Source: a virus. Taken from it: DNA of 64,000 nt. Numbering within the stretch: the stretch's first letter is position 1; every line of letters begins with the position of its first letter. A program made the position numbers and the translations under genes. Below are positions 369 through 53,853 of the stretch, in pieces. Where the stretch lies: the IMG/VR virus record IMGVR_UViG_3300045988_122168, one strand, 5' to 3'. Below the pieces are notes generated by a model. The model had not been told where the DNA came from, made no database searches, and worked only from the letters and a program-made list of their open reading frames with translations.

Positions 369-991
369 ACCTCCGACTTTTTCTTCCCCATGCTAGCTAA
401 TACTCACCGCTTTCTTTACATGGCATCACCTATAATATATTTATTATATATTAGTAGGTTATTAGTAATATAAATGTTACTAATATACTACATCTATATT
501 AACTATACAAGTGATATTCATGAAGAATATAGTGTAGTAGATGGGAGGAGACCTCCACGGTGAGCATTAAATAACAAGAAGAATACGCAAGGGTGGGCGG
601 GACCTTCTGGTCGAGTGACTCCCACTCCCTCTCCATGAAAGCTTCCTGTCTCCCCTCCATAACCTGTGCTATGGATTCCTTGTCAGGAGCGATTCGGCCC
701 GTTGGTGGTCCATGACCTCCACCTTGTACCTTTCGGCATGGGTTACTCGTCGTCAAGTCGTACAGACGTAGCGAGATTTCTTTGAACCTTATTCATGAAC
801 AGTTTATATTCCAGGCACTCTAGCCTTGGTGAGCGTTTTCGGGTGTCAACCGGGGCGACAGGTCGCTCTGTCTTCAACTGCCGCTATATACCTCTTGTCG
901 TGGGAATCTCTATAAAAAGAGAAATCCTTGACCGGACTAGTGTTGATTGGAGATCAGAAAGTCAAGGATAAGCTCTCAAGTATCTATAAAA
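369..991 (-). ncRNA. long ORF-poor, hairpin-dense leader or structured RNA (paralog of 56145..56829); strand inferred
   Basis: The only ORF is a TTG-started low-complexity 85-aa one. An AT-rich block with TGTAGTATAT-type motifs is followed by a G/C-rich block full of short complementary runs (e.g. GGAGG-AGA-CCTCC at 544-556, GGTGG..CCACC at 704-723). Collinear similarity to 56330-56760 (GATGGGAGGAGA vs GATAGGAGGAGA, GACGACGA, CAAGGTRG). Lies downstream of the leftward TATATTTG box at 1201-1208. Confidence 0.3.
910..969 (-). terminator. terminator-like hairpin with U-rich tail (leftward sense), large loop
   Basis: 9-bp stem 961-969 / 924-932 (ATCCTTGAC / GTCAAGGAT in leftward sense) followed by TTCTCTTTTTAT. 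The 28-nt loop weakens it. Sits about 25 nt 3' of element copy A. Confidence 0.3.
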
Positions 992-1178
992 GGCACTTAC
1001 ATTTTCATGTATTTACGCTTCACCGGAACGCTACTTTTTAGGTCAATTTCTTGACGGTCATCCATAGTTGGAACCTCCACGTACAAGTCCCGTGTGCCAC
1101 AGGTTAATTTTTTTATCTAATAAATTCGTAGAACGCAAAAATTTAATGTTGCTTGTCATAGTTTCTGATCTCCTAATC
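945..1178. repeat. 12+4 bp inverted repeat bracketing element copy A
   Basis: GGAGATCAGAAA (949-960) is the exact reverse complement of TTTCTGATCTCC (1162-1173). Pairing extends 4 more bp (945-948 with 1175-1178) past a 1-nt bulge. Confidence 0.85.
992..1103 (-). ncRNA. repeated ~110-nt structured RNA element, copy A
   Basis: Reverse complement aligns with copies B, C and D. Carries the variants CCUGU[GGCAC]ACGGG, GUCAA[GAAA]UUGAC, UACAU[GAAA]AUGUA and 3' GUGCC, all preserving the predicted pairings. Confidence 0.6.
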
Positions 1179-1200: not shown

Positions 1201-1208
1201 CAAATATA
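1201..1208 (-). promoter_or_regulatory. Bacteroidota-type -7 promoter box TATATTTG (leftward)
   Basis: Exact TATATTTG on the minus strand (fits TAnnTTTG). About 100 nt upstream of element copy A. Flanking bases resemble the box at 56818-56825 (TATATTTGCAyTGyTA). Confidence 0.45.
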
Positions 1209-1400: not shown

Positions 1401-1408
1401 TATATTTG
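1401..1408 (+). promoter_or_regulatory. Bacteroidota-type -7 promoter box TATATTTG (rightward)
   Basis: Exact TATATTTG, 25 nt upstream of element copy B and about 200 nt upstream of the tail-fibre ATG at 1611. Confidence 0.45.
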
Positions 1409-1433
1409 CTAAGTATTTATTGTTTAACAATAA

Positions 1434-1546
1434 CCGTTGGCACACGGGAGTTCGGACGTGGAGGTTCCAACTATGGATGACCGTCAAGAGATTGACCTAA
1501 AAAGTAGCGTTCCTGTGAAGCGTCAACACGTGAAAGCGTGAGTGCC
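1434..1546 (+). ncRNA. repeated ~110-nt structured RNA element, copy B
   Basis: Shares the near-identical core with copies A, C and D. 3' hairpin is CACGU[GAAA]GCGUG and 3' tail GUGCC is complementary to GGCAC in the 5' hairpin loop. The 5' stem is imperfect in this copy (5' strand like D, 3' strand like A). Confidence 0.6.
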
Positions 1547-1610
1547 TATAATCACCATGAAGTGCAAAAAACGCAAAGGATGTGGCGGCAAGCCTAAAAA
1601 GTAGTTTGAC

Positions 1611-4600
1611 ATGAGCGACGAGAAGAAAGAGATACTGTTGGGAGCCAACGCTAGAGAGGTACCCAACTCCATAAAGTTCCCCACGGGGATGAAAGAGAAC
1701 CCCTCCCCGTCACTGGCTGACTTCCTGATGACGCAGAGGGCTGACAACCTCGGTGGTGACCCCGAAACCATAACGCTAGAGACCCTGGGCAAGTTGCTGG
1801 GGGTGGGGGAAGGTAGCGGTAACCCGTCCACCGATCCCATATTCAACACGTTGACGGTTTCGAAGTGGCTCAAGGTTGGTGAATCTATCACGATTAACGA
1901 TCTTATATTCAGGATATTCCGTGACGGTCTCAAGACTTACATACGTGCCGAGGACCTCAAGAACCCGGAGGCGGAGATATGGATTGACCTGTTCGCCGGG
2001 GCGTTCACTAGGCTTATCGCCACGCATTACGACACCCCCGGGTGGCAACAGGGTATCGCCGGGGGATCGTTATGGAACGACGAGACCGGTAACTCTCACC
2101 TAGAGGTGGATTACGCTTACATCCGCAAGAAAGCCACGTTCGTTAACCTAGTTATACAGCAGTTGACGGCGCAGGCCGGTCAGGTGATCATCACCCCCAC
2201 CAACATGAAGATAGGCAGGGTGGAGGAGCTTGATCAAGGTTACAAGTGTTACGCCGAGGACGGTGACTTGAATAATTTCATCGTTTACGACCAAGCCAGA
2301 TGCCAGAAGTTCACGCTAGAACACCAGAAGTACTACTGGCGTCTCGTCATAGCCGTGGGCGCCGATTACTGCATCCTGTCGAAGACAGATCAAGACGGTA
2401 ACGGTGACGTCCCGGAGGCCGGTGACGAGATCGTGTTGTTCGGTCATCGAGACGACAAGAACAAGCCGAGACAATCCGCCATCATGCTGGATGCCGCCTC
2501 TGACCAGGCCCCGGCGATTTCCATATACATGGGTATCAACTCGTACGACCTCACGGGAAAACGGGTGGGAGTTTTCGGTAGAGACCCGCTAGACTCGGCG
2601 GCCGCCGGTATATTCGTGCAGAACGGTCGTTTCGAGAACATCATGATAGGCCCGGGATGTACCGGTCTTGACAACTTCGCCGAGTACGACAAGTTGATTA
2701 ACGATATAAACAAGGCGGTGTCCAAGAGCGTTGACATCATGCCTGACCCCGCCCCCGCCTTCATCACCGACAAGGACGGTAACACGACCCCGGACGAGAT
2801 CACGATACGGGTATCCGAGAACAACTTCAACTCCGATCTCGGCGGTTACCGCAGGTGGTACTACCTTTCAAGCGACGGTTTCAAGGAGATAGAGGGGGAG
2901 AACCAGAAGACACTGGTCATCACCCGAGACAAGGAGTGGTGGGCTGGCAAAAGCACTTTATCCGTCATGTACGAGGTGGAACTGGACGGGGAGAAGTACT
3001 CCGACGTCGCCTCCCTTATCAAGGTATCTGACGGTATCAACGGGGCGGGTGGTTACATCGCCGTGCTGGATAACCCGTACGTGGGTATAGCGTCCGATTA
3101 CAACGGGCAGATCAAGGACGGGCAGCTCGGGGAGAACGGTCGTGCCAAGACGGGTGTCGTGGCTTACGCCGGTACCACTTTACTGTCCCCCAACCCTAAC
3201 CCGGGCAAGGGCCAGTACAAGCTATCCATAAAGAAGGTGTCAGGTTGTACCGCAGCCCTCACGCAGGCGGGTGGCGAGATGTACATCCTTGACATGTTCC
3301 AGGACATGGCGTCAGTTACCCTCACCGTGAACTTCGAGGGAGCCGGGGTGACTATGGACCTCGTTTTCAATTGCAGCAAGACTTTCGACGGCGCTTTAAG
3401 CTCCGAGGAGATAAAAGGTGAACCGGGGGAGGCGGCTTACTCGCTGGACCTCGATAACGACGTCTGCATAGTTTCCACCCAGCCTGACGGTAGCGGTGGT
3501 TACTGGGGTGATAACGCCAAGACGACCGCCATGGTGACGAAGGGGGGAAAGGACATCAGCTCCAAGTACAACTTCTCGACCGAGGCCAACCCTGACACGA
3601 TAGATTACCTCGCCACCAACAACGGGAAGACCGTGCAGGTGAAGGGCATGGAAGAGGATGACGGTTTCATCCTGTTCACCTGCATGCCCAAGAACACCAT
3701 GGACCCGGACACGATAAACGCCCCCACCTTGCAGAAGAGGTTCAATATCTCGAAGAACAAGCAAGGGGAACAGGGTCAACGTGGACCCGGCGGTTACGTG
3801 TGGATCGTTTACGCCGATGACGAGGCCGGTACGGGCATATCGCTCACCCCGGAAGGTAAGAAATACATAGGGTTGGCTCACGACAAGGAAGTGCCTAACC
3901 CGCCCCTGCCTCTTAACCCTGCTGATTACCAGTTCTCGCTGCTGACGGGGGAGGGAGTACCGGGACCCCCGGGAAGTGACCGTTTCATATGGATCAAGTT
4001 CTCTACCACCCACCCGATCACGTCACTGTCACAGGTGACCAACGACGGCTCGGCGGAAGGGCTTCGATTCATCGGGTTCTCTTACAATCAAGTGAACCAG
4101 GAGGAAGACACCTTCCCCCCGGGAGAGGAACAGACCATTGACGTGGCTTACTACAACCGTGAGTACGAGTGGTCAGAGTACAAGGGAAAGGACGGTATAG
4201 GCTTGCAAGTGCAATACTCTAAAGATGGTAACTCAAACTGGCACTACCCGTTCCGTGTGGATGACATCTTCATGAGACAGAAGATGGATGACGGCGTTAC
4301 GTGGTCAGACCCCATGAGGATCGTGGGTGAAGCCGGGCAGGACGGTACATACGTTGACTACCAGTTCGCCAAGAATACCTCGATGGAGACACCCCCTACC
4401 TCGGGATGGCAAGACGCCCCTCCCAAGACTAGCGGTAACGAGTTCCTGTGGATGAGAAAGGGAACGGTTGAACCTCCCGCCACGGAAGTTCCGGCTGACG
4501 GGTGGAGTACCCCTGTCGTGCTTACAGGGCCGTCAGGAGCCTCTTACTGGATCGTCCCGGACACGAGGTTCATCAACATGCTGAACGGGTCTCCTAACCC

Positions 4601-7241
4601 CCCTAAAGTGTGTTTCACGGCAAAACGTGGATCGGTAGCCGACGGGGTGACGGGGTGGTCGCTCGGTTACTGGCGAACCGCTTACTCTAAAGACAATCAA
4701 AAGACCTGGACCACGATAAAGTCGTGGACTTCACAGGTACCTTACATAGACGTTGACATCGACCCGTCGTGGACGAACCTCAGGGCGGAGCTTTACTTCG
4801 ACCAGGGTTTCGTTAATATCTGCGACAGCGAGGTCGTGTTGATACAGGACGTTTCCGGGATACCTGGAGAGTCCAACTACGTTATAGACCTTGACAACGA
4901 GGTGGGTTCAACGAACACCTACTCTGACGGTAGCGGTGGTTACTACGGTAACAACATGCTGACTAGACTGCGGGTGTTCTACGGGACCGAGAACGTGACG
5001 AGCCAAGCCACGGTAACCGTGTCCGCCGACTCGGGTATCACGTTCACGAGAACCAACAATTCCGAGTACGTTCAAGTTCAGGTAACCGGTTTCACCGGGT
5101 CTAACATGACCGGTTCGGTTATCTTCAACGTGTCTAGCGCTAGCGGCGCCTTCCCCTCCATCCAGAAGATGTTCAAGGTTATCCGTGTCCCTCAAGGTGA
5201 ACGTGGACCGGAGGGTGATTCCATATCGGTTCAATTCTCCGTTAACGGGACGTCCGGGTGGCATTACCCGTTCGTGGAGGGAGACATCTACATGAGACAG
5301 AAGGTGGGTAGTGACGCTTGGTCTGACGCCATTCGTGTCGTTGGAGAGCAAGGGCAGCCCGGCAAGGACGGGGAATCCGGTGGTTACACCGAGTTCCAGT
5401 TCTCTATCGGCAAATCTAGGACTAGCCATTCGGATATAGCGGAAAGCTCGTGGACTGACGGCCCGCAAAGCACTACGGTAGAGAAGCCTTTCGCTTGGAT
5501 GCGTAGCAGGACCGTTGACAAGTTCGGCTCGGTGTCCGGGTGGACTTACGGGTCTTACGGCGCCCCCGGTAACGACGGTGCTGACGGTTTGCCCGGAACG
5601 GCTTACTGGCTATCCACCGATTGTTCTAGCGTGTCGATAAAGACCGACAAGGATAAACCTAACGAGAACCCGGCTAACCCGAGAACGGTCACGGCAACCG
5701 CTCACAAGGGAGAGGGAGGGGTAGGAGTTAGCGATTACTCTTGCTACTGGTACGTTGCCGTGTCTTACGACTACATGAAGAACTGGACGGTTATAAAATC
5801 CGTTGGTGGTTCTGCCGCCACCAAGTACACGTACACCGTGGCTAAAAGCGATGCTAAAGGATGGCCTACCAACATCAGGTTCATCGCGTTCTTCGATTCA
5901 GCAGGTGCCAAGATGATAGATACAGAGGACGTCCCGGTTATCAACAACGATCTTAACGACGTTACATCACTAGATTACTTGAAACACGCCTTGCAACAGA
6001 AGACGGAAGTGGATGGAGGTTTAATATCTACCACCTACATCAAGGTTGGTTATTCCCCCTCCCTCAGGGGCGGTAGTTCAGTTCCTGACGAGATACCTAG
6101 TGACTGGGTAGAAACCGGTGGCATGTACGGTGGTTCAACTCTAGCTCCCGGTCAAGGTGACGTGTGGACGATAAGACAGTTCAGGAATCGTGTGCCTAGA
6201 TTTTATAGTGGTGGCGATTTTGAAAAGGCCAAGGCGTCTTTAGCTTACGCCACCACCCAGCTCGGGGCTGACAACTACGATCCCCCCACCGACAAGGTAA
6301 CGTTCGCCGTGAGTGACTCGGGTATATTGTACGCCCAGAACGCCTTCATCGAGGGTACGGTTATGGCTAGTGGGGGGAAGATAGGTAACCTTACCATAGA
6401 TTCTGACGGTTTGGCTTACAATCAAGTTACAGAGAACGGGAAAACGTATTACAAGTCAAAATTGTACAATGGAGGTCTTGTATATCGTGAAAATTGGAAC
6501 GCAACGGATAGCGACTGGGATAGACAAATAGCTATCGGAACATCAGTTATCCCATCTTCTGCCGGAATTAGACCAATGTTGTACGGTAAAGTTAAACAGA
6601 GGGGTAGTTATGATACCACCACTTTCATGTACTTGTCTATCACGGGTGAAACTAGGAATTTTTCAGTTAATTCAGGTCCTCAAGCTATTAGAGTACAAGA
6701 AGGAGATATTCATATTAATAAAGGGTATGTAACTTACAGTGGTAATTCCTATTCTTATTATTCTGGTATAAACGGTTATGGTGATGTCAGGATAGGTAAC
6801 GGATGGGTTGATATAGGACCTGATCCTAATTTTAGTGGCGCTACAAGAACGGAGCCGGGAGGCATTAACTTGGCGTCGCAAAGAGCAGCGTTAATTTTTA
6901 ACGGTTTACGAAGACACTCTTTCAGTTCAGATAGACAACAAATAAGTATTGGAAATGATAACAACATGGTTGTCTTGTATGGAGGTGGATCTAACAAGAT
7001 TGTTAATATAGAACCTAGGTTAGCGATAGGATCATGGTTTTTTATCATGTCATGGGCGGACGAGAAATTCTGGATATACGCCCCGTGGTCTTCAGGAGAG
7101 TATTTCATAATTGATGACTTGTATTATAAAGGAGTTTCTTCTGCCGGTCATGATATAGTATTTGTTATAAAAGTTGATTCGAATAAATGGATAGCGTCTC
7201 AAATGCCTAAAAACTGGCTTTCTTTTGAAGAAAGAGTTTAG
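1611..7241 (+). CDS. tail fibre / receptor-binding fibre protein with collagen-like spacers (1876 aa)
   Basis: ATG ORF heading the rightward virion block. Short G-x-x runs (GEQGQRGPGG, GEAGQDG, GERGPEGD, GEQGQPGKDGESGG, GAPGNDGADGLPG) separate repeated modules. A ~340-aa super-module is tandemly duplicated (SDGSGGY[WY]G; NWHYPF..D[IF][FY]MRQK..WSD..R[IV]VGE; [LA]WMR). Confidence 0.7.
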   Translation: MSDEKKEILLGANAREVPNSIKFPTGMKENPSPSLADFLMTQRADNLGGDPETITLETLGKLLGVGEGSGNPSTDPIFNTLTVSKWLKVGESITINDLIFRIFRDGLKTYIRAEDLKNPEAEIWIDLFAGAFTRLIATHYDTPGWQQGIAGGSLWNDETGNSHLEVDYAYIRKKATFVNLVIQQLTAQAGQVIITPTNMKIGRVEELDQGYKCYAEDGDLNNFIVYDQARCQKFTLEHQKYYWRLVIAVGADYCILSKTDQDGNGDVPEAGDEIVLFGHRDDKNKPRQSAIMLDAASDQAPAISIYMGINSYDLTGKRVGVFGRDPLDSAAAGIFVQNGRFENIMIGPGCTGLDNFAEYDKLINDINKAVSKSVDIMPDPAPAFITDKDGNTTPDEITIRVSENNFNSDLGGYRRWYYLSSDGFKEIEGENQKTLVITRDKEWWAGKSTLSVMYEVELDGEKYSDVASLIKVSDGINGAGGYIAVLDNPYVGIASDYNGQIKDGQLGENGRAKTGVVAYAGTTLLSPNPNPGKGQYKLSIKKVSGCTAALTQAGGEMYILDMFQDMASVTLTVNFEGAGVTMDLVFNCSKTFDGALSSEEIKGEPGEAAYSLDLDNDVCIVSTQPDGSGGYWGDNAKTTAMVTKGGKDISSKYNFSTEANPDTIDYLATNNGKTVQVKGMEEDDGFILFTCMPKNTMDPDTINAPTLQKRFNISKNKQGEQGQRGPGGYVWIVYADDEAGTGISLTPEGKKYIGLAHDKEVPNPPLPLNPADYQFSLLTGEGVPGPPGSDRFIWIKFSTTHPITSLSQVTNDGSAEGLRFIGFSYNQVNQEEDTFPPGEEQTIDVAYYNREYEWSEYKGKDGIGLQVQYSKDGNSNWHYPFRVDDIFMRQKMDDGVTWSDPMRIVGEAGQDGTYVDYQFAKNTSMETPPTSGWQDAPPKTSGNEFLWMRKGTVEPPATEVPADGWSTPVVLTGPSGASYWIVPDTRFINMLNGSPNPPKVCFTAKRGSVADGVTGWSLGYWRTAYSKDNQKTWTTIKSWTSQVPYIDVDIDPSWTNLRAELYFDQGFVNICDSEVVLIQDVSGIPGESNYVIDLDNEVGSTNTYSDGSGGYYGNNMLTRLRVFYGTENVTSQATVTVSADSGITFTRTNNSEYVQVQVTGFTGSNMTGSVIFNVSSASGAFPSIQKMFKVIRVPQGERGPEGDSISVQFSVNGTSGWHYPFVEGDIYMRQKVGSDAWSDAIRVVGEQGQPGKDGESGGYTEFQFSIGKSRTSHSDIAESSWTDGPQSTTVEKPFAWMRSRTVDKFGSVSGWTYGSYGAPGNDGADGLPGTAYWLSTDCSSVSIKTDKDKPNENPANPRTVTATAHKGEGGVGVSDYSCYWYVAVSYDYMKNWTVIKSVGGSAATKYTYTVAKSDAKGWPTNIRFIAFFDSAGAKMIDTEDVPVINNDLNDVTSLDYLKHALQQKTEVDGGLISTTYIKVGYSPSLRGGSSVPDEIPSDWVETGGMYGGSTLAPGQGDVWTIRQFRNRVPRFYSGGDFEKAKASLAYATTQLGADNYDPPTDKVTFAVSDSGILYAQNAFIEGTVMASGGKIGNLTIDSDGLAYNQVTENGKTYYKSKLYNGGLVYRENWNATDSDWDRQIAIGTSVIPSSAGIRPMLYGKVKQRGSYDTTTFMYLSITGETRNFSVNSGPQAIRVQEGDIHINKGYVTYSGNSYSYYSGINGYGDVRIGNGWVDIGPDPNFSGATRTEPGGINLASQRAALIFNGLRRHSFSSDRQQISIGNDNNMVVLYGGGSNKIVNIEPRLAIGSWFFIMSWADEKFWIYAPWSSGEYFIIDDLYYKGVSSAGHDIVFVIKVDSNKWIASQMPKNWLSFEERV

Positions 7242-16880: not shown

Positions 16881-16897
16881 GAATTGTTTAATAAAAA

Positions 16898-17006
16898 CCG
16901 GTGGTACACCGGGGTTCGGACGTGGAGGTTCCAACTATGGATGACCGTCAAGAGATTGACCTAAAAAGTAGCGTTCCTGTGAAGCGTCAATATAAATACA
17001 AGTACC
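16898..17006 (+). ncRNA. repeated ~110-nt structured RNA element, copy C
   Basis: Same core as the other copies. 5' hairpin is CCGGU[GGUAC]ACCGG and the 3' tail is GUACC, so the loop and tail changes are mutually compensatory. Lacks the GAAA 3' hairpin. Ends 12 nt before the ATG at 17019. Confidence 0.6.
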
Positions 17007-17018
17007 TGATTATTTAAA

Positions 17019-17294
17019 ATGGAATTGAGAGAATTTAGCTACATGGATAACGGCAGGAAGTTATGTTTCCGGGTGGGACAATCGCTGTCGTTCACGTCAC
17101 GGGGTGGGGGTTTAACGAGCATGGTCATACACTCGATCAAGAAGGAGCGCCTTAAAAACCGTGACAAGATAACCATACACGTCCGGGAGAAGGACGGCAA
17201 CGAGGCGGTGGTGTGGAAGGAGATATACCGTCACGATGACGGGAGTTTAACCATTGACGTGAGCGATTATGAAAAGGAACTTGAAAGGGATTAA
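17019..17294 (+). CDS. hypothetical protein (91 aa)
   Basis: ATG ORF immediately after element copy C. First gene of the packaging operon, so it could be a small terminase subunit by position only. Confidence 0.55.
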   Translation: MELREFSYMDNGRKLCFRVGQSLSFTSRGGGLTSMVIHSIKKERLKNRDKITIHVREKDGNEAVVWKEIYRHDDGSLTIDVSDYEKELERD

Positions 17295-23465: not shown

Positions 23466-23503
23466 AAAATCTTTTAACGTTTTGTTATTATAGATTTTAT
23501 CTA

Positions 23504-23511
23504 TATATTTG
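23504..23511 (+). promoter_or_regulatory. -7 promoter box TATATTTG upstream of scaffold and capsid genes
   Basis: Exact TATATTTG, 23 nt upstream of the ATG at 23535, in a 69-nt intergenic gap. Confidence 0.5.
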
Positions 23512-23534
23512 TGTAACAATTTAAATTAAATCGA

Positions 23535-24575
23535 ATGGCAAAATTGGATGAAATACTGAAGGATATAACTTTCAAGCCGGGAGAACAGGTCCCTGCCGTC
23601 AAGGAGGGAGAAACCGCGCCGGAACCGAAAGTTGAAGACGAGGCAGACGCCCCCACCCCCGAAAAGATGGAGGATGTCAACAAGGTCGATGATCAGGAAA
23701 TAGATTTCTCGAAGGTACCGGAAGAGAAAATACTGGGATACCTGGCCGGTAAGGTAGGTAAGGAAGTGAAGACGTGGGATGATCTGGTAGAGATTCGAGA
23801 GGTGGAAAAAGAGGTTGAGAAACCCGTTGATTACGCCAGTCCTGACGTGGCTAACATCGACAAGTTCGTCCGGGAAACCGGGAGGGGAGTGGACGATTAC
23901 TTCAAGGTACAGAAAGACTGGGACAACGAGCCTAACGAGAAAGTTGTCAAGGAGTACCTCAAGACTCAATACCCGTCACTAGACAAGGAGGATATTGAAG
24001 TCATGTATGAAGACTACTTCCAGACCGAGGAGGTGACCGAGGACATGCTAGATGACGAGAGAAAGGCAATTGACCGCAAGAACAGGTCAAAGCTGGTTAG
24101 CTTGAAGACCAAGGCCGAGGAAGCTAGAAAGTATTTTAACGCCCAGAAAGAGCAATACAAGACTCCTCTCAAGCGTGTGGAGGAAAACGTTGACAAGGGA
24201 AAAGAAGAATGGGTGAAGGGGGTGAAAGGAGCCTTGTCAAGTCTTGATAAGATCGAGATTGACGGTTTTAGTTACGAGATTCGTGACAAGTCGAGATACG
24301 ATAAAGTGTTCGACGGGATCGACTCGCTGCTGGGAACGTTCAAGAACGAGGACGGTACCTTCAATTACGGCAACCTGGTAAGAGTGATCACCGCCGGGAT
24401 GGAATTGCCGAAGATACTGGAAGAACACGCCAAGGCGGTGAAAGCTAATACCGTCGAGGAGGAAATGAAGAAGAAGTCCAACGCCACCACTGACGCCCCT
24501 AAACCGGGAGACGTCAAAGGTCCATCGGAGGACGAGTTCCTGAGGTTCCTCAAAGACAAGAACTTTATAAGATAG
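23535..24575 (+). CDS. scaffolding-like acidic protein (346 aa)
   Basis: Very E/D/K-rich, helical-looking sequence directly upstream of the capsid gene. Positional inference. Confidence 0.5.
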   Translation: MAKLDEILKDITFKPGEQVPAVKEGETAPEPKVEDEADAPTPEKMEDVNKVDDQEIDFSKVPEEKILGYLAGKVGKEVKTWDDLVEIREVEKEVEKPVDYASPDVANIDKFVRETGRGVDDYFKVQKDWDNEPNEKVVKEYLKTQYPSLDKEDIEVMYEDYFQTEEVTEDMLDDERKAIDRKNRSKLVSLKTKAEEARKYFNAQKEQYKTPLKRVEENVDKGKEEWVKGVKGALSSLDKIEIDGFSYEIRDKSRYDKVFDGIDSLLGTFKNEDGTFNYGNLVRVITAGMELPKILEEHAKAVKANTVEEEMKKKSNATTDAPKPGDVKGPSEDEFLRFLKDKNFIR

Positions 24576-26010: not shown

Positions 26011-26036
26011 TGAATCTGAATTTAATTAACAAAAAA

Positions 26037-26149
26037 CCGTTGGCACAACGGGGTTCGGACGTGGAGGTTCCAACTATGGATGACCGTCAAGAGATTGACC
26101 TAAAAAGTAGCGTTCCCGTGAAGCGTCAATACGTGAAAGCGTAAGTGCC
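26037..26149 (+). ncRNA. repeated ~110-nt structured RNA element, copy D
   Basis: 5' hairpin CCGUU[GGCAC]AACGG, GUCAA[GAGA]UUGAC, UACGU[GAAA]GCGUA, 3' GUGCC. Starts 27 nt after the capsid terminator and ends 11 nt before the ATG at 26161. Confidence 0.6.
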
Positions 26150-26160
26150 TCGAATCTAAT

Positions 26161-26973
26161 ATGGCAAGTACTAAAGAAACAAAGAGAATCACGGAAGAAG
26201 AGGCTAAAGAGCAAATTATCGCCGACCTAGAGAAGAGGGGGTTGGGGAAGAAACCGTTAACGTTCCTCCTCACGGGTACCCGTAACAATCACTCGTTAAG
26301 ACCGAAGACACGTCACGTGTACACCGGCAAGAACGGGGAGACTTACGTGTTCAACCTCCGTTACACCCCGGTATCCCCCACCGCCATCGAGAATGACCAG
26401 AACATTGATGGACCGGTAGAGCTTAGACGGGTAGATTTCCCGGGAGACCGTTGGACCGTTTACCCTGAAGACAGGGGATTACAGATGTTCCTCATGCTAC
26501 ACCCTTTCTACGGGAAGAACAAGGTGTTCTACGTGGAGGACTTGGAGGCTGACGCCGCCATCGAGGAGAGCATGTGGACTGACATGGGTACCGTGATCGA
26601 GCTTTGCAAGACATCAGACTTCGAGGTGTTACAGGCCGTTTACGCCACCTTGAAGGGAGTCACCACCGAGATGAATCCCACCATCCTTCGTGCCGGTATC
26701 CTTGACAAGATGAAGACCGGGACTAACCCCCGGGAAATCATCGAGATGTTCGGTGACAAGAGAAACACGATCAAGTTCAAGATTCAGTCCGGTATACGGT
26801 TGAACATCTTGAAGATGAACGCTAGAAAGACGGAATTGAGCTGGACTAGCGGTGGCGTTATCTACACTTGCGCCCCGGGTCTTAACATCATATCCGAGTT
26901 CGCCGAGTGGGCCATGACAACCGAGGAGGGAGGGGCCACTTACGACAAGATTATAACCAAGTTAAACGCTTAG
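26161..26973 (+). CDS. hypothetical virion-module protein (270 aa)
   Basis: ATG ORF right after element copy D. No motif recognised. Confidence 0.65.
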   Translation: MASTKETKRITEEEAKEQIIADLEKRGLGKKPLTFLLTGTRNNHSLRPKTRHVYTGKNGETYVFNLRYTPVSPTAIENDQNIDGPVELRRVDFPGDRWTVYPEDRGLQMFLMLHPFYGKNKVFYVEDLEADAAIEESMWTDMGTVIELCKTSDFEVLQAVYATLKGVTTEMNPTILRAGILDKMKTGTNPREIIEMFGDKRNTIKFKIQSGIRLNILKMNARKTELSWTSGGVIYTCAPGLNIISEFAEWAMTTEEGGATYDKIITKLNA

Positions 26974-27656: not shown

Positions 27657-28426
27657 ACGTAAAACTAACAGACATTATCGACTCGGTGTTGATAGACGCC
27701 ACTGACCCGGACAGTTACGTTCACGGTGTCAGCAGGGAACTGGTCATAAAACACGCCCAGAGAGCGGTCGAGGAACTGCGATACGTGGGTGACAAGCAAT
27801 ACAAGGAGGCGGAGGGGGAGATGAACGCAGTGGGCAAGTTCAGGATGCCTAACGACTTCATCGACTACATAGCCATCTACTTCCTGCACGACGGGTACAA
27901 GATTCCCGCCCTCTACAACGATAACATCAACACGTGGTACTCGTACATGCTCAAGAACGATGACGTGTACGCCGCCCAGAACATCCTGACGAACGAGGAA
28001 GAAACGATGATAGACAACAACGACTACGAGATCGTGAAGGGGGTAGACCTCAACGGTATGAAGTCAGCCGAGTGCATGCTGCCATGCCGTCACAACTCTT
28101 TCCTAGTTAGCAAGAACGGTTACCAGTTCGATTACAGGGATAACACCCTCACCTTCGACGACGTGCCGGAGGGTTACGATCGCATACTTATATGCTACGT
28201 GTCTAACGTGGACCTCACGGACATCACGAAGATCAACGTTCACCCGTACTTGCAGAAATACCTAGAGGCTGACATATACTGGAGGCTCATCGAGAGAAGA
28301 CGTAACGTGCCGATGAACGAGAAGATACGGGCGAAGGCAGAGAAGAACCGTCGTTACAAGGATGCCAAGTTCGAGATAAACTTCAAGAGAGAAGAAATTA
28401 TTCAAGCGTTATTGAGAGCTTTATAA
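27653..28426 (+). CDS. hypothetical virion-module protein (257 aa)
   Basis: ATG ORF with a 4-nt overlap with the upstream gene. No motif recognised. Confidence 0.65.
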   Translation: MNVKLTDIIDSVLIDATDPDSYVHGVSRELVIKHAQRAVEELRYVGDKQYKEAEGEMNAVGKFRMPNDFIDYIAIYFLHDGYKIPALYNDNINTWYSYMLKNDDVYAAQNILTNEEETMIDNNDYEIVKGVDLNGMKSAECMLPCRHNSFLVSKNGYQFDYRDNTLTFDDVPEGYDRILICYVSNVDLTDITKINVHPYLQKYLEADIYWRLIERRRNVPMNEKIRAKAEKNRRYKDAKFEINFKREEIIQALLRAL

Positions 28427-28465
28427 ACTATCATTGCAAGAATAAAACATCTTTTGAATTTAAAC

Positions 28466-29578
28466 CTAAGCAGAGATATGCAAATTAGCACACCACATAC
28501 CCGATTTTTCAGGCTGGTTTATGGCAGCCCCAAGCAGGGCGATATTTATAGCGGCATTAATATCCGCGTCCATATCGTTCCCGCAATGCTTACACTTGAA
28601 AGACTTGTTATTCCTAGTACCAATATGATGGCACTTGGAACAAGTCTTGGAAGTATATGCTGGTGGAACGACAATCAACGGCACTCCATCCCTTTTAGCC
28701 TTGTATTCAATAAAAGACCTAAGCTGGGAAAAACTCCAAGAAGAAAGTTCTCTTTTAAACGTTTTATTTCCACGCTTGGAATTAGATCGGATGTTTGTCA
28801 AGTCTTCAATAGCGATGCCAACCCCTCTAGTTTTAGCTTCATTGACTATTCGCTTGGAGATGGTGTGATTGATTATCGTTGCCGTGGTTCTCTCTTTCCC
28901 TTTAAGCCGTTTCAAGAGTCTAGCGCATCCACGTTTACATTCACGTGTTCTATCTCTAGTGCCTTTGGATTGAATAGAACCACGAATTTTCATTCGTTTT
29001 TCCCTGTACTGGTTAAGAAATTGAGAAGAGTATTTTTTACCGTCAGACGTGCAGACTATATCAGTTATTCCAAAATCACAACCGATAAACTCTTCAACAT
29101 CTTCCATGTCTTCCTCGGGAACTTCTACCGTTTGAAAAAGGTAAAACTTGCCTCTCTTGAAAACAAGATCGGCTTCTCCCTTGATATATGGAATGTAATT
29201 AGTGTTATGACAAACGAAAGCAACCTTCTGCCTCTTGTTAACAGTCCATATAGAAGCAACGTTTCCATGATAAGAAAGTACGCGGCTATCATAGCTTATA
29301 CTTCCAAGTTCATTGAAAACACGTTGTTTCTTCCTGTCAATCTTGTACGCGTCGGCAACCTTGCTAATACAACGAACAACTATTTGAGCGGAAAGTTTAA
29401 ACTTGTCTCTAATGTCATTATAACACAAGTGATGAAGTTTAAATTGATTAAAAACTCTATTCTTCCATGCGATTTCAGAAATAAGGTTACAAGCCGCGTT
29501 AGCCTCCTTGATCGTTTCAAGAAGAGCTTGATACTGGTCACCAGTTGGAAGAAGTTTTATTTTCAATGTCAGTTTCAT
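28466..29578 (-). CDS. tnpB: TnpB RNA-guided nuclease (OrfB_IS605 family, 370 aa)
   Basis: RuvC motifs are intact: IGCDFGI (D), GVGIAIEDL (E), DADINAAINIA (D). Zn ribbon CSKCHH..(10)..CKHCG. N-terminal MKLTLKIKLLPT..Q...L is typical of the family. Confidence 0.9.
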   Translation of the reverse strand: MKLTLKIKLLPTGDQYQALLETIKEANAACNLISEIAWKNRVFNQFKLHHLCYNDIRDKFKLSAQIVVRCISKVADAYKIDRKKQRVFNELGSISYDSRVLSYHGNVASIWTVNKRQKVAFVCHNTNYIPYIKGEADLVFKRGKFYLFQTVEVPEEDMEDVEEFIGCDFGITDIVCTSDGKKYSSQFLNQYREKRMKIRGSIQSKGTRDRTRECKRGCARLLKRLKGKERTTATIINHTISKRIVNEAKTRGVGIAIEDLTNIRSNSKRGNKTFKRELSSWSFSQLRSFIEYKAKRDGVPLIVVPPAYTSKTCSKCHHIGTRNNKSFKCKHCGNDMDADINAAINIALLGAAINQPEKSGMWCANLHISA

Positions 29579-29582
29579 GTCG

Positions 29583-29590
29583 CAAATATA
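29583..29590 (-). promoter_or_regulatory. -7 promoter box TATATTTG, 4 nt from the tnpB ATG
   Basis: Minus-strand TATATTTG followed by CGAC then ATG (29578). Confidence 0.45.
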
Positions 29591-29703
29591 CGAAACATAT
29601 CTGATATATTCAAATATTTGAAAAAATATTCATATAAAAAAGTAATAATGATTCGATTATTTCAATGTAATATTTATTTTTGTGGTTCATCAAATTATTT
29701 ATT

Positions 29704-32700
29704 ATGAAGGTAATACAAGATTTCTCGGGGGGAAAGATGAACATGGACATCGACCCCCGCTACATGCCGAAGGGGCAATACCGTGAGGCTCGAAACGTCC
29801 GTGTGATAGACACCGATAACGAGAACTCCGGTGTCATCGAGAGCATGGACGGGACGAGAGTGGTCATCGACGAGCCACTGTTCACGGCCGGATCGGTTAC
29901 CGCCGGCATGTACGAGTACAACAACAAGATATACCTGTTCACCGCCCTCAAGCAAGGCGGTTTTTCTATACTGGAATACGATTCCGTTACCGGCAAGGGA
30001 AGCCACGTCCTCGTTGACCAGCTATCCACCTTGCGGGAGGAAGACGGTCTACGCAACACGATATGTTTCCTTCACAACAAGAAGGACGATCAATCGGTGT
30101 TCACGCAAGCCTACAATCAAGGTTTCGGGTGGTACGTGCCGTCCAAGGAAGAGATCAAGGACGTGATAGACAACATCGAGGAGACGTGGAAGTTCCTTAT
30201 CTCCGAGAGGGAGGAAGACATCATCACGTTCAACAACCAGTACATAGGGGTGGGTACCGCCGTGGAGGTCCAAGAGGACACCCCCACCACCCGTTCGGCT
30301 CGTGCCTTGTCAGCACCGGTACCACTGGTGAACGAGCAGGAAGGCTCCGGTAATTACTACTGGACGTCCACCGAGTACGACAAGGATCAAGCGTACGTGT
30401 ACGGTTTCCTCGGGCTTCAACTGGCACCGAAGACCAACCATTACATGTGCGTTGTTATCAAGAGGTTCCGTTTTGACATACCCCCGAAAAAGGGAGACTC
30501 GTATGACGGTGGAACGATCTACAAGGTGGACATGGAGAAGATGGAGGCGAGGGCGATGAAGATGCTGCCCACCACCTTCGTTTACGATTCCACCCCGGAG
30601 GTACTCACGCAGGACCTTGTCACCCCCTTCAACCTTCAAACGAGGGTGAGCGGGTTCGCCATGCTTAACGACATCATGGTGTTCCACGACTGGATGACCA
30701 ACGAGCCGGTGGAGATAGACACCAGCAAGACGAGAGGGTACTTCAAGTTTTATGACTGGACGGCGATGAAGCTGGTTAAACGTCCACCTCTCTCCGTTGA
30801 CGTTGAGATAGCCGAGAAATCGGAGCTGGGGGAGATGCGTAACATCAACCCGTTGTTCGCCGCTCGCTACATTTACGATACCCGTGAGACGTCAGCCATC
30901 AGTCCTTATTCCACCTCGACGTCCGAGCTTGATGACGAGGACTCGAAAAAGGTAGAGTACGACATGATGGTAGAGTGTTACGTGTACAAGGACAAGGTCA
31001 AGTTCGTTAACTCCTACATGGACCCGGTTTCTGGCGTGAAAACGTACTGGACCTCTCACGAGCTTTCCATGTCGTTACCTAACACCAGTTTCTCGAAGGC
31101 TTACTTGAAGTCTTTCAAGACGAGGTCTTTTGACGCAAACGACACGAGCTTTCACTCGGAGGGTGTTATAGCGTTCACGGGTACAACGGATAATTACCTG
31201 GACCCGGCGGGGAGGGGGTATTTCACTCACTTCAAGACGAACGCTGATGCTATCGACGTGGTGGGTGACATGTTCATAAACAAGAACGACGGTGGTGACA
31301 TCAACAAGGCTGGTGATCAAATATATTACGCTAGAACTCATGGTGCATCTGGAAGTAATAACGGGCAGTTGATGCTGTTCGAGTACAACAAGAACGATAA
31401 CTCCCTGTCAGAGATTCAAGGGTTCGTGGGGGACGGTGACCAGCACGAGGGAGGTTTCTGCATGTCGGATTCTGGAAAGCAAGTGTACGTCGTGTACAAG
31501 AGCGAGTTCGCTTACAGTTCCGAGTACGGGAAAGGAGGCACGTTCACTCAAGTGAAATTGAATGACTTCATATCCATAATAAGCAAGCCGAGGGGAGTGA
31601 AGATTATATGCGATTCTGACGGTAGCGTCGTGTACGTATCCTGTAACCAGAACTTCGATACCGACAACAAGTACACGCTGGTATCCGAGAACTACGGGAA
31701 GAACTTCACCACGGTATCCACCTCCCTCGTCAACGAGTTCATGTGTTGCTCTTCTAACGGGAAGTTCTTCGCCCTCGCCGGCAAGACCGTTGACACCATA
31801 TACTACTCGAAAGACTCCGGTAAGACGATGTCAAAGGTTACCCCCCAGTACGTGAGTGACCCGCAGAACTATCAAGTGACCGGTATGTCCATGTCCCCTG
31901 ACGGTAGAACGTTTTACGTGACGGCCATCAACGGTAACACGGCTTACCTTTTCGCCTCGCAGAACTACGGGTTGTCGATAACCAAGATAAACAACTACTC
32001 TCACGAGGGAGTGGTGGGGGCGTCAGTTTCTTACGTGCGTGGATCGTACTCGAACGAGACGCTTAACGAGATCAGTAACGCCACCTCCGCCGTGAACGTG
32101 ACGGTGAACACAGGTAACGAACACGTGGAGAAGATAGAGATACTCATGAAGACGGGGCAGGGGATGTACAAGGTGAAAACCATAGACAAGAAGAAACTGG
32201 GGCTGGAAGATAACGTGGACTACACCTACAAGTTCTCTTACTCCGGCAACTACCCCCTAATCCCGATGAAGGACGTGAACAAGTTGTTCGATAACGTCCC
32301 CATGATGGCTAGAAGTTGCATGATAATACAGAACTCGCTGCTATTCGGGGGGTACGTTGATGGTTTCGACATAGACACGGACGTGTCCCTGATGGTGGAG
32401 ATAAACAACTCCCCCACCACTTCCACGACGTACTCTTTAAAGACCGGGACGACTCAAGGTTACGGTATCATCTTCATGGATGACTTCGGGAGGTGTTCGC
32501 CCGTGCTGGCTCCCGTTGACGTTACCGTTCCCAGGATAAACGCTGACGCCGCTAACATCGGTCGTGTGGCAACCGTTATCGTGAAGGGTAAGGCCCCGTC
32601 ATGGGCTACCAAGTTCAAGTTCGCCAGACGTAACCCGAAGGTGCTATTCGACGTGATCGACGGTTTCGATAACGCCTACGTGATAAACGGGAAGTTCTAC

Positions 32701-52459: not shown

Positions 52460-53149
52460 TTATCCCCACTGATCGGCCATTGCGTCAGCAATACCTTGAA
52501 ATGTCTTGCTCCTTAGTCTCTGCCTCTCTTCCTTTGGGAGAGAAATCGCATCGTAATACCATTTAGACATCTTTTTCCCACTTTTAGTTATCGCTATCTC
52601 CCCCTCACCCACGATGTTGGTGGGAGTCAACTTGGGAAGTCCCTTGAGCCATAAACAAGTCGCTTTCCGAGCCTCATGCCCGAACATGAAAGGTTGAACG
52701 ATTTGATCGGGCTTCCTGTAACATGTACTCATGATTCCCACGGGATTCTCTATGGCGATCTTCTCGATGTCAGATTTGACGAATTCCATGAAAAATTTCT
52801 TGCCATCATCCCTGTCCTTGGCCCTGTTAGGGTATCTGGGGTGAGGTCTTCTCTGCTCTACTGGTAGCCCCTTGTCTTCCGGGTGATAGTACCATGAAGC
52901 ACCGCTAGATGACAAGAAAGTGCATGGTGGGTGGGCAATCATCAAATCCCATTTATCTATCGTCACCTCCTGTCCCCCCTGCGTCTTGAACGTCCCGCCT
53001 TTCATCACTTCAAGAACGTCTCTCTTGATGTGGTATTCAGGATAACCGCCTGAACAATCTACTATATCACAACTGTAAGCGTTGTGTCCTTTCTTTCTAA
53101 AAGCGAGGCATACCGTTTGGCTTTCCTCGCAAGCTATTAAAACATTCAT
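52460..53149 (-). CDS. phage-type DNA methyltransferase-like protein (PPC motif; no clear AdoMet motif I)
   Basis: N-terminal VLIACEESQTVCLAFRKKGHNAYSCD and LMIAHPPCTFLS match a family of small phage proteins usually annotated as DNA cytosine methyltransferases. I cannot see a canonical F.G.G motif. Confidence 0.45.
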   Translation of the reverse strand: MNVLIACEESQTVCLAFRKKGHNAYSCDIVDCSGGYPEYHIKRDVLEVMKGGTFKTQGGQEVTIDKWDLMIAHPPCTFLSSSGASWYYHPEDKGLPVEQRRPHPRYPNRAKDRDDGKKFFMEFVKSDIEKIAIENPVGIMSTCYRKPDQIVQPFMFGHEARKATCLWLKGLPKLTPTNIVGEGEIAITKSGKKMSKWYYDAISLPKEERQRLRSKTFQGIADAMADQWG

Positions 53150-53853
53150 TTGTTATCTAGTAAGTCGTGTAAAAATTTTCTACCTTTCTCCGTCCACCGG
53201 GTCTGTATTTGTGTCCCCTGTTCCCCGTTAGCCATCATGTACGGGACGGACACGGTGTGAGTGTACCCGTTGCCTTGGTACTTGGCGTACAGTATCCACG
53301 CCCCACCCTGCCTGTATTGAACGCCCATCTTCGCCAGTCTAGCGTTTAACGTCTTGGCCGATAGACCGAACTCCTGCGCCACCTGGGTGGTGGTGTATGA
53401 ACTCTTCGATGACATCGCCTTGTCGAAATACTCGACCTTGGGGGCGGCCTCTTTTATCGTCTCCGTGAGCAACGTTTTCTCTTGCTCTAGCATCTCGATT
53501 CTTTGTTCCCTTCTCTTGATAGTCTCTTGGGCGATCATGACTGCTCTAGCCATTATCTCTTCCGGGGTATCATTGTTACTAGTAGACATATAACCGCCAT
53601 TCTTTCTTATAGCTGGTAAAACTTCTGATGTTACCCATTTACGGAAAGGCTTAACACGTGGAGATGAACTTTGCAATATCACGTCATAGAATCCAGATTC
53701 AGTAACAAAGTTTGCCATTGAATTACCAGTTATACCCTCACTAGAATTTAGGGCGTGTAAATCAATTAATTGCACATCGTCTTTGTCTAGCCTGTTTTTA
53801 ACTTCACTAGGATTTGTCAATTCTAATATGGTCTTTGAAACTCTGCACAGCAT
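53146..53853 (-). CDS. Bro-N / KilAC antirepressor-type protein (235 aa), N-terminus apparently short
   Basis: Bro-N core (ESGFYDVILQSSSPRVKPFRKWVTSEVLPAIRKNGGY) plus C-terminal KilAC/ANT (TTTQVAQEFGLSAKTLNARLAKMGVQYRQGGAWILYAKY). The usual first ~25 residues of Bro-N are missing. Confidence 0.7.
   Translation of the reverse strand: MLCRVSKTILELTNPSEVKNRLDKDDVQLIDLHALNSSEGITGNSMANFVTESGFYDVILQSSSPRVKPFRKWVTSEVLPAIRKNGGYMSTSNNDTPEEIMARAVMIAQETIKRREQRIEMLEQEKTLLTETIKEAAPKVEYFDKAMSSKSSYTTTQVAQEFGLSAKTLNARLAKMGVQYRQGGAWILYAKYQGNGYTHTVSVPYMMANGEQGTQIQTRWTEKGRKFLHDLLDNK

Follow-up and report, generated by a model that had tools for sequence, protein, structure and literature searches.

The sequence upstream of the tail-fibre gene in viral record IMGVR_UViG_3300045988_122168 raises the question of what kind of element recurs, almost unchanged, at four places in one stretch of 64,000 nucleotides (the window), and what it may do for the phage that carries it. 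The original prediction described four copies of a structured RNA of approximately 110 nt and recognised no known family. A search of the window with the 60-nt core at up to two mismatches found exactly four places where zero were expected by chance, and the four copies were alignable over ~125 nt within flanks that were unrelated to one another. Scanning with R1, a covariance model built on the element family and run with filters off, returned only these four copies (A, B, C and D) at 122–134 bits, with the next best match at 10 bits, and the predicted number of copies is therefore borne out (Table 1). Comparison of the whole window with Rfam 15 at the gathering threshold gave zero matches, whether to ribozymes, riboswitches, RAGATH-18, HEARO or other families, and E-value scans of the copies together with four tnpB-linked loci returned noise only. 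The statement that no known family could be recognised thus stands as far as Rfam is concerned, but the element itself proved to be the omega-RNA scaffold of TnpB, which is a well-described class.

Table 1. Positions of the scaffold copies and associated features in the window
Feature	Position	Strand	Basis or remark
Copy A, orphan omega-RNA scaffold	991..1113	-	R1 122.4 bits
Copy A layout: 10-nt A-rich lead, P1, P2-P3 core, short GAAA hairpin, GUGCC, U at -1			sequence
Copy B, orphan omega-RNA scaffold (feature under study)	1424..1547	+	R1 122 bits
Copy C, orphan scaffold, 3′ hairpin lost, pseudoknot GGUAC/GUACC	16888..17007	+	R1 125.9 bits, alignment
Copy D, orphan omega-RNA scaffold	26027..26150	+	R1 133.7 bits
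Guide-equivalent of copy A, TTTATAGATACTTGAGAGCT	971..990	-	directly 3′ of scaffold end
Guide-equivalent of copy B, ATAATCACCATGAAGTGCAA	1548..1567	+	includes ATG 1557 of 15-aa mini-ORF
Guide-equivalent of copy C, GATTATTTAAAATGGAATTG	17008..17027	+	ATG at 17019
Guide-equivalent of copy D, CGAATCTAATATGGCAAGTA	26151..26170	+	ATG at 26161
Empty E site	23500..23545	+	window reads ...TTTAAAT followed by TAAATCGAATGGC...; fifth solo copy there in relatives
TATATTTG, Bacteroidetes-type -7 box-like motif upstream of copy A	1201..1208	-	sequence; putative promoter element
TATATTTG, -7 box-like motif 15 nt upstream of copy B	1401..1408	+	also at empty B sites; putative promoter element
Terminator-like hairpin ATCCTTGAC...GTCAAGGAT and T-run, 3′ of copy A	914..969	-	sequence

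The consensus fold obtained from alignment A2 (39 sequences) comprised a 5′ hairpin (P1), a nested core (P2, P2b and P2c), a GNRA-capped P3 and a 3′ hairpin, with the loop of P1 pairing to the last five scaffold nucleotides. Among these 39 relatives 98.5% of cells were paired and double changes occurred at 11 pairs, in comparison to ~35% pairing in slid-partner controls. Analysis of 87 distinct tnpB-linked sequences identified compensatory changes at 30 of 35 pairs, and all five pairs of the pseudoknot covaried in these sequences; the pseudoknot was absent from the model used to make alignment A3. Seven pseudoknot variants were found (GGCAC/GUGCC, GGUAC/GUACC, GGCAU/AUGCC, GGCGC/GCGCC, GGCGU/ACGCC, GGUGA/UCACC and GGUAG/UUACC), with GGCAU/AUGCC being restricted to the B locus, and in this RNA family the 3′ strand occupies positions -6 to -2 with a U at -1. 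The UAUGG and CCUAAA strands, which had been likened to the 11-nt receptor of a GAAA tetraloop, were invariant across the 39-sequence alignment and so gave no covariation by which to judge this likeness, and CUAU (48–51) is predicted to pair with GUAG (81–84). Single-sequence folding energies of the copies were unexceptional (z = +0.2 to -1.9), so the support for the structure comes from covariation and not from thermodynamics. The hairpins, the exchange of a GAGA for a GAAA loop and the loop-to-tail pseudoknot that had been read from the four copies were all present as described, and the deeper alignments upheld both the covarying stems and the claim of a structured RNA.

The 3′ hairpin distinguished two classes of sequences. 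A short, GAAA-capped version is common to most solo copies and also occurs in tnpB-linked form at the locus termed F, and it is absent from most tnpB-linked copies, where its place is taken by a longer hairpin with the tnpB stop codon inside it. The short-hairpin class taken alone had 99% of cells paired and double changes at seven pairs; these compensatory changes may be older than the loss of tnpB. In alignment A4 one unpaired G was padded at column 26 of copy A for register, with no pair affected. Copy C has lost its 3′ hairpin, and its orthologues in some genomes also lack part of P3.

The identity of the element emerged from its relatives. A distant DNA search revealed a 64-nt match in Prevotella Lak megaphages, corresponding to the 3′ end of an ORF reading ...CPNCGKLINRDYNAALNILDEG...VDYPTMDDRSEMNLKSSDRVKQE that Pfam assigned to TnpB (HTH_OrfB_IS605, OrfB_IS605 and Cas12f1-like TNB domains). 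One in-frame TAG interrupts the TnpB frame of Lak-A1 (L001, 346–1608), in agreement with reports of stop-codon recoding in Lak phages. Scanning IMG/VR with an 18-mer yielded 70 loci, ~16 of which have the motif at the very end of a ~400-aa ORF. Seven loci belong to close relatives of the window phage; the TnpB encoded there is 408 aa long and ends in ...SDVEVPTMDDRQEIDLKSSVPVKRQYVQV and a stop codon, which is the reading frame of the element. R1 matched the 3′ end of ~90 TnpB genes whose proteins shared 54–100% identity, and the element overlaps the last ~45 codons of tnpB and ends at the transposon right end. The full element is ~1.42 kb in length and consists of a left end (...GGCAACTATATAGTAAATTACA...), tnpB and a right end (...AAGTGCC(T)), without tnpA. 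The 408-aa protein possesses the three TnpB Pfam domains and readable D-E-D RuvC motifs, its closest solved relative is ISDra2 TnpB (E = 9e-77), and ~200 TnpB relatives were found in IMG/VR. In three other phages (L171, L180 and L197) a second, divergent omega-RNA-like match of 45–47 bits was observed at positions 310–448 of the minus strand, upstream of tnpB and on the opposite strand, and may represent another solo or neighbouring element.

Each copy in the window is almost certainly an omega-RNA (reRNA) scaffold, split by internal deletion from its nuclease gene and corresponding to the terminal ~125 nt (from a point just 5′ of the P1 stem to the right end) of an ISDra2-like, tnpB-only IS200/IS605 element with activity in this phage population. 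What is unusual is its orphan state; the kind of RNA is known, and no new RNA class is involved. Two other readings of the conserved unit were weighed and both appear very improbable. A structured-RNA class unrelated to mobile elements, such as a ribozyme, a riboswitch or a protein-binding leader, would agree with the absence of an Rfam match at gathering or E-value thresholds and with the presence of GNRA loops and a pseudoknot, but the occurrence of the same RNA at the 3′ end of ~90 TnpB genes and a topology equal to that of the solved ISDra2 omega RNA speak against it; the location at the 3′ end of tnpB and the homology of the cognate protein to ISDra2 TnpB in effect refute it. The other reading takes the conserved unit to be a gene for a 22-aa peptide (MDDRQEIDLKSSVPVKRQ..) following GGAGG, and is favoured by a frame that is open in all four copies and by two variable sites (GAG/GAA and CCN) that are synonymous. 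These sites lie in a tetraloop and an unpaired linker, and since the 408-aa TnpB of relatives ends in the frame of the element, the 22-aa ORF is a relic of the TnpB tail. In ISDra2 TnpB the matching C-terminal region shows disorder and little conservation (PMC10097598). In relatives the peptide encoded by the stems varies freely (DDRQEIDLKSS, DERGESHLRSS, DDRSTSSLRSS) with the base pairs preserved, indicating that selection acts on the RNA. An independent peptide gene was accordingly rejected.

With respect to the origin of the phage, searches of INPHARED for near and distant DNA matches with the packaging genes identified no relative, and a TerL protein search found 36% identity to Flavobacterium 'elemo' and Cellulophaga podophages. 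When bacterial genomes were surveyed for a host-borne source, the 18-mer was present in only five contigs and the RNA in one of them, a 2.4-kb Prevotella MAG contig.

A tblastn search of the window with the 408-aa TnpB gave no match, and all four window copies lack a cognate tnpB directly upstream in cis. The window corresponds to positions 233–64,232, reverse-complemented, of ENA ERZ28596920 scaffold_107 (75,219 bp), and an intact cognate tnpB was absent from the 74.2 kb examined of this 75.2-kb source contig. What the source genome retains is a 243-codon 5′ remnant of the gene (tnpB408) that continues into ...HETATV and a stop codon (L209, 11027–11770), ~0.7–1.4 kb left of window position 1 and outside the window. 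The remnant has no RuvC-II/III, zinc ribbon, omega RNA or right end, and the neighbouring gene for a collagen-like protein of 180–210 aa is deleted as well. Genomes L206 and L213 carry an intact tnpB408 at the same place.

The window does encode a TnpB of its own (ORF 28466–29578, minus strand, 370 aa) with D-E-D motifs and a Pfam TNB match of 1.7e-25, and a 417-aa plus-strand ORF at 28454–29707 is probably a shadow of this gene. Its element (28417–29680, minus strand) sits antisense between two late plus-strand genes, shows TATATTTG 4 nt upstream of its ATG and terminates in a conserved 3′ RNA and right end of its own (...GGTAGTTTA, also given as ...GATAGTTTAT) with a covarying hairpin. It is sporadic, being found in only six close relatives, and a version with 79% identity occurs in unrelated phages. 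The 370-aa protein was rejected as a partner of the four copies on the grounds of its ~26% identity to the 408-aa TnpB, its sporadic occurrence, its unrelated 3′ RNA and the lack of an R1 match at the 3′ end of its gene.

Comparison of phages at least 91% identical to one another showed that all four sites can be occupied or empty: the D site was empty in 9 of 23 loci, and empty alleles of the A, B and C sites were also present in relatives. Solo copies also occur at additional loci in relatives, among them E. The empty E site of the window is a candidate target of the E guide carried by relatives, with a 12-nt seed match. At locus F the full element (L206, L213), a solo copy (L056) and the 5′ remnant (L209, the genome of the window) were each found in different genomes, and in L045 a 3′ partial tnpB is fused to a neighbouring gene. 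Intact tnpB408 donors are common in the phage population and include 10 IMG/VR contigs in addition to L206 and L213. The 5′ junctions of solo copies vary between loci by up to ~15 nt, which places them at various points in the 3′ part of the tnpB coding sequence, and the left end of the element is absent from all of them; solo copies are therefore interpreted as internal-deletion derivatives and not as PATE-type mini-transposons. Despite these differing junctions, six loci retain the complete scaffold. Hybrids at the A locus show gene conversion between copies.

Full tnpB408 insertions in L014, L035/L066 and L015 (relative to window positions ~51300, ~14530 and ~58500) are accompanied by direct repeats of 4–7 nt (AAATGG, TGATG, AGGT); target duplications are not expected of IS200/IS605 elements. 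In L027 a full tnpB408 element replaces window segment 52419–53174, which contains an ORF for 229 aa (52460–53149, minus strand) without a Pfam match. This segment adjoins a Bro-N/KilAC antirepressor-like gene (53146–53853) and marks the position of a replaceable cassette.

Copies B, C and D are located between a TAnnTTTG-like motif and a start codon, with 9–11 nt separating the scaffold end from the ATG (9–12 nt when the E copies of relatives are included), and with the E copies they make up essentially the whole 5′ UTR. Their predicted position in late-gene leaders was confirmed. These motifs and short leaders are also present at empty sites. Full-length copies are likewise found immediately upstream of start codons in A/T-rich leaders, and the leader position of the solo copies can therefore be attributed to an insertion preference. 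Copy A is not a leader; it belongs to a short unit on the minus strand. Within the surroundings of copies A and B, a lysine/cysteine-rich mini-ORF of 15 aa (MKCKKRKGCGGKPKK, 1557–1604) separates copy B from the tail-fibre gene (1611–7241); it is conserved in relatives and deleted in L010, where a 27-nt deletion that begins exactly at the scaffold/guide boundary of copy B removes its start. A 13-nt inverted repeat (ATCACGTGGACGA / TCGTCCACGTGAT, at 1250–1262 and 1343–1355, arms 80 nt apart) occupies the divergent intergenic region between the two copies and is conserved in L002.

In a TnpB system the guide is read from the DNA that follows the scaffold, and the 3′ flanks of the copies differ at every locus. 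At empty B sites (L021, L041) TTAAAT is followed by a 20/20 match to the B guide and at empty D sites (L098, L119) TTTTAAT is followed by a 20/20 match to the D guide. The match to the C guide at the empty C sites sampled was limited to the first 8 nt, and the empty A site had no TAAAT-like motif 5′ of a window-type guide. Other insertion sites read TAAAAT, ATTTAT, ATCAAT, TATAAT and AACAT. Taken together, the motifs at empty and other insertion sites suggest an A/T-rich candidate TAM ending in -AT, the candidate itself being read from empty sites only; the left-end flanks of full-length copies, searched for a TAM, had no conserved motif and displayed short direct repeats instead. Diversity of the guide segment at locus D was 0.157 in comparison to 0.152 at third codon positions, which rejects an excess of guide-segment diversity and leaves no signature of target escape at this locus. 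Variation between genomes in the right flank of copy A sets in precisely at the scaffold/guide boundary. Among the orthologues compared at A and B (window 971–990 and 1548–1575; L003, L021, L026, L034, L041, L010), this flank is 5 or 11–12 nt shorter in relatives through an indel from that boundary, and copy A of the window is flanked by a 10–11-nt repeat, TTTAT(T)AGATA.

On the basis of these sequence comparisons, we give an even chance to the proposal that the copies work as trans-acting homing guides when a co-infecting relative supplies TnpB. Copies B to D would be transcribed with the late genes and copy A as a short, terminator-bounded RNA, and the transcripts would fold into a TnpB-binding scaffold whose guide would be the 16–20 nt after the scaffold, i.e. 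the start region of the downstream gene. Because the tnpB408 of this genome is truncated, such RNAs could act only with TnpB from a co-infecting relative. The TnpB-RNA complex would then cut genomes that have no insertion at the corresponding locus, and recombinational repair templated by the occupied genome would transfer the element together with linked alleles (non-restorative homing or marker exclusion). The occupied site would be self-protected, its TAM having been replaced by the scaffold end, GUGCCU, and in the absence of TnpB the copies would be inert leader sequence. The empty B and D sites, with TAAAT or TTAAT preceding 20/20 guide matches, were counted in favour of this proposal as the best explanation; the lack of an intact tnpB in cis, the decay of copy C, the poor fit of the C and A guides and the absence of a target-escape signature were counted against it. 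That selection in addition keeps solo scaffolds as dispersed trans guides at late-gene starts, so that a nuclease and guides split between genomes amount to an RNA-guided gene drive or marker exclusion, is a tentative and rather doubtful extension.

Alternatively, the right-end remnants may be neutral deletion scars in short, A/T-rich leaders that have no present function and are slowly decaying. This is the main rival and a serious possibility, short of an even chance. In favour of this reading, the cognate tnpB of this genome is truncated, and the copies are evidently dispensable since near-identical phages lack them; the hairpin losses of copy C and its orthologues and the deletion intermediates L045 and L209 point the same way, and the low divergence of the copies may reflect recent origin. 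Against neutral decay stand the complete scaffolds at six loci with different 5′ junctions, the almost uninterrupted pairing and seven double-change pairs of the short-hairpin class, which include the pseudoknot variant private to the B locus, and the abundance of intact TnpB donors in the population. It is also conceivable, but improbable, that the scaffolds have been exapted as cis leaders that tune late genes through mRNA stability, translation or TnpB binding that hides the start codon (guide +9 to +14). Conflict between a guide RNA and the RNA of a host gene is a feature of IStrons, which this arrangement would resemble. The nearly complete occupation of the 5′ UTR close to the ATG by B, C, D and the E copies of relatives and the -7 box-like motifs just upstream of copies are consistent with such a role. 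However, every locus is polymorphic for presence and absence among near-identical phages, and this dispensability makes a required cis-regulatory role unlikely; the position is explained more simply by insertion preference, copy A is not a leader, and it appears implausible that a transposon nuclease would repress abundant late mRNAs stoichiometrically. Homing guides that act in trans are retained as the preferred reading.

TnpB omega RNAs, and orphan omega RNAs used in trans as a concept, are already known, as are sporadic TnpB genes in crAss-like phages (PMC11054128). Our literature search found no paper on orphan omega RNAs in phage late-gene leaders. The analysis exchanges a candidate 'new RNA class' for a precise identity, and it adds a covariance-supported omega-RNA family that is undetected by Rfam 15 and widespread in phages of Bacteroidetes-type hosts. 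Within one phage population, among members that are more than 91% identical, it also documents every state of a single TnpB element, from the full copy through 5′ remnant, 3′ partial and scaffold-only forms to the empty site. Should the orphan scaffolds prove to act in trans, RNA-guided homing between co-infecting phages could be tested directly in this system, which would also provide a compact ISDra2-like nuclease whose scaffold is naturally minimised (short GAAA hairpin) and whose TAM is probably A/T-rich.

The closest known system is that of ISDra2, whose solved complex contains a 116-nt scaffold with four stems and a pseudoknot between nt -6 to -2 and the loop region of 5′ stem 1 (PMC10097598). 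Like the ISDra2 omega RNA (structures 8BF8, 8EXA and 8H1J), the RNA described here is encoded at the 3′ end of tnpB, overlaps its C-terminal codons and ends at the right end of the element, has a scaffold of ~115–125 nt in which the 5′ stem loop pairs with nt -6 to -2, and would take flanking DNA as its guide; the cognate proteins are homologous and share the D-E-D RuvC triad. In contrast to ISDra2, this family has an extra hairpin between the core and the 3′ strand of the pseudoknot (the hairpin whose long versions hold the tnpB stop codon), its candidate TAM is TAAAT/TTAAT in place of TTGAT, the window copies have no tnpB and no Rfam model detects the family.

Non-autonomous, PATE-like IS200/IS605 elements encode only an omega RNA, for which use in trans has been proposed (Meers et al. 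2023, PMC10055086). The copies in the window resemble PATEs in being guide-RNA scaffolds without a nuclease gene that would need TnpB in trans. They differ in that a PATE retains its left and right ends and is mobilisable by TnpA, whereas these copies have no left end, have 5′ junctions that differ by locus and look like internal deletions, and are located in phage late-gene leaders. Non-restorative homing, including into co-infecting phages, has been discussed for OMEGA systems (review PMC13565253). The proposed cutting of an element-less allele in a co-infecting phage, with the element and flanking markers being copied in, parallels the free-standing homing endonucleases of T-even phages (Seg, Mob), but recognition here would be RNA-guided, with the guide and the nuclease in different genomes.

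TldRs, which are nuclease-dead TnpB-like repressors without catalytic residues, are encoded beside a guide RNA that directs them to the promoter of another gene. The present copies are like TldR loci in that a TnpB-type scaffold occurs outside an intact transposon, and unlike them in that no TnpB-like gene is adjacent, the related protein keeps its D-E-D residues and the putative guide is the local flank. Virus-borne CRISPR mini-arrays without cas genes are orphan guides that need a nuclease from outside and have been proposed to act in conflict between viruses. Such mini-arrays carry acquired spacers, whereas the scaffold and nuclease family are different here and the guides are fixed by the insertion site. 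If the proposed division of nuclease and guides between genomes is true, it would constitute a functional analogue of the cas-less viral CRISPR mini-arrays, built from the guide RNA of a transposon.
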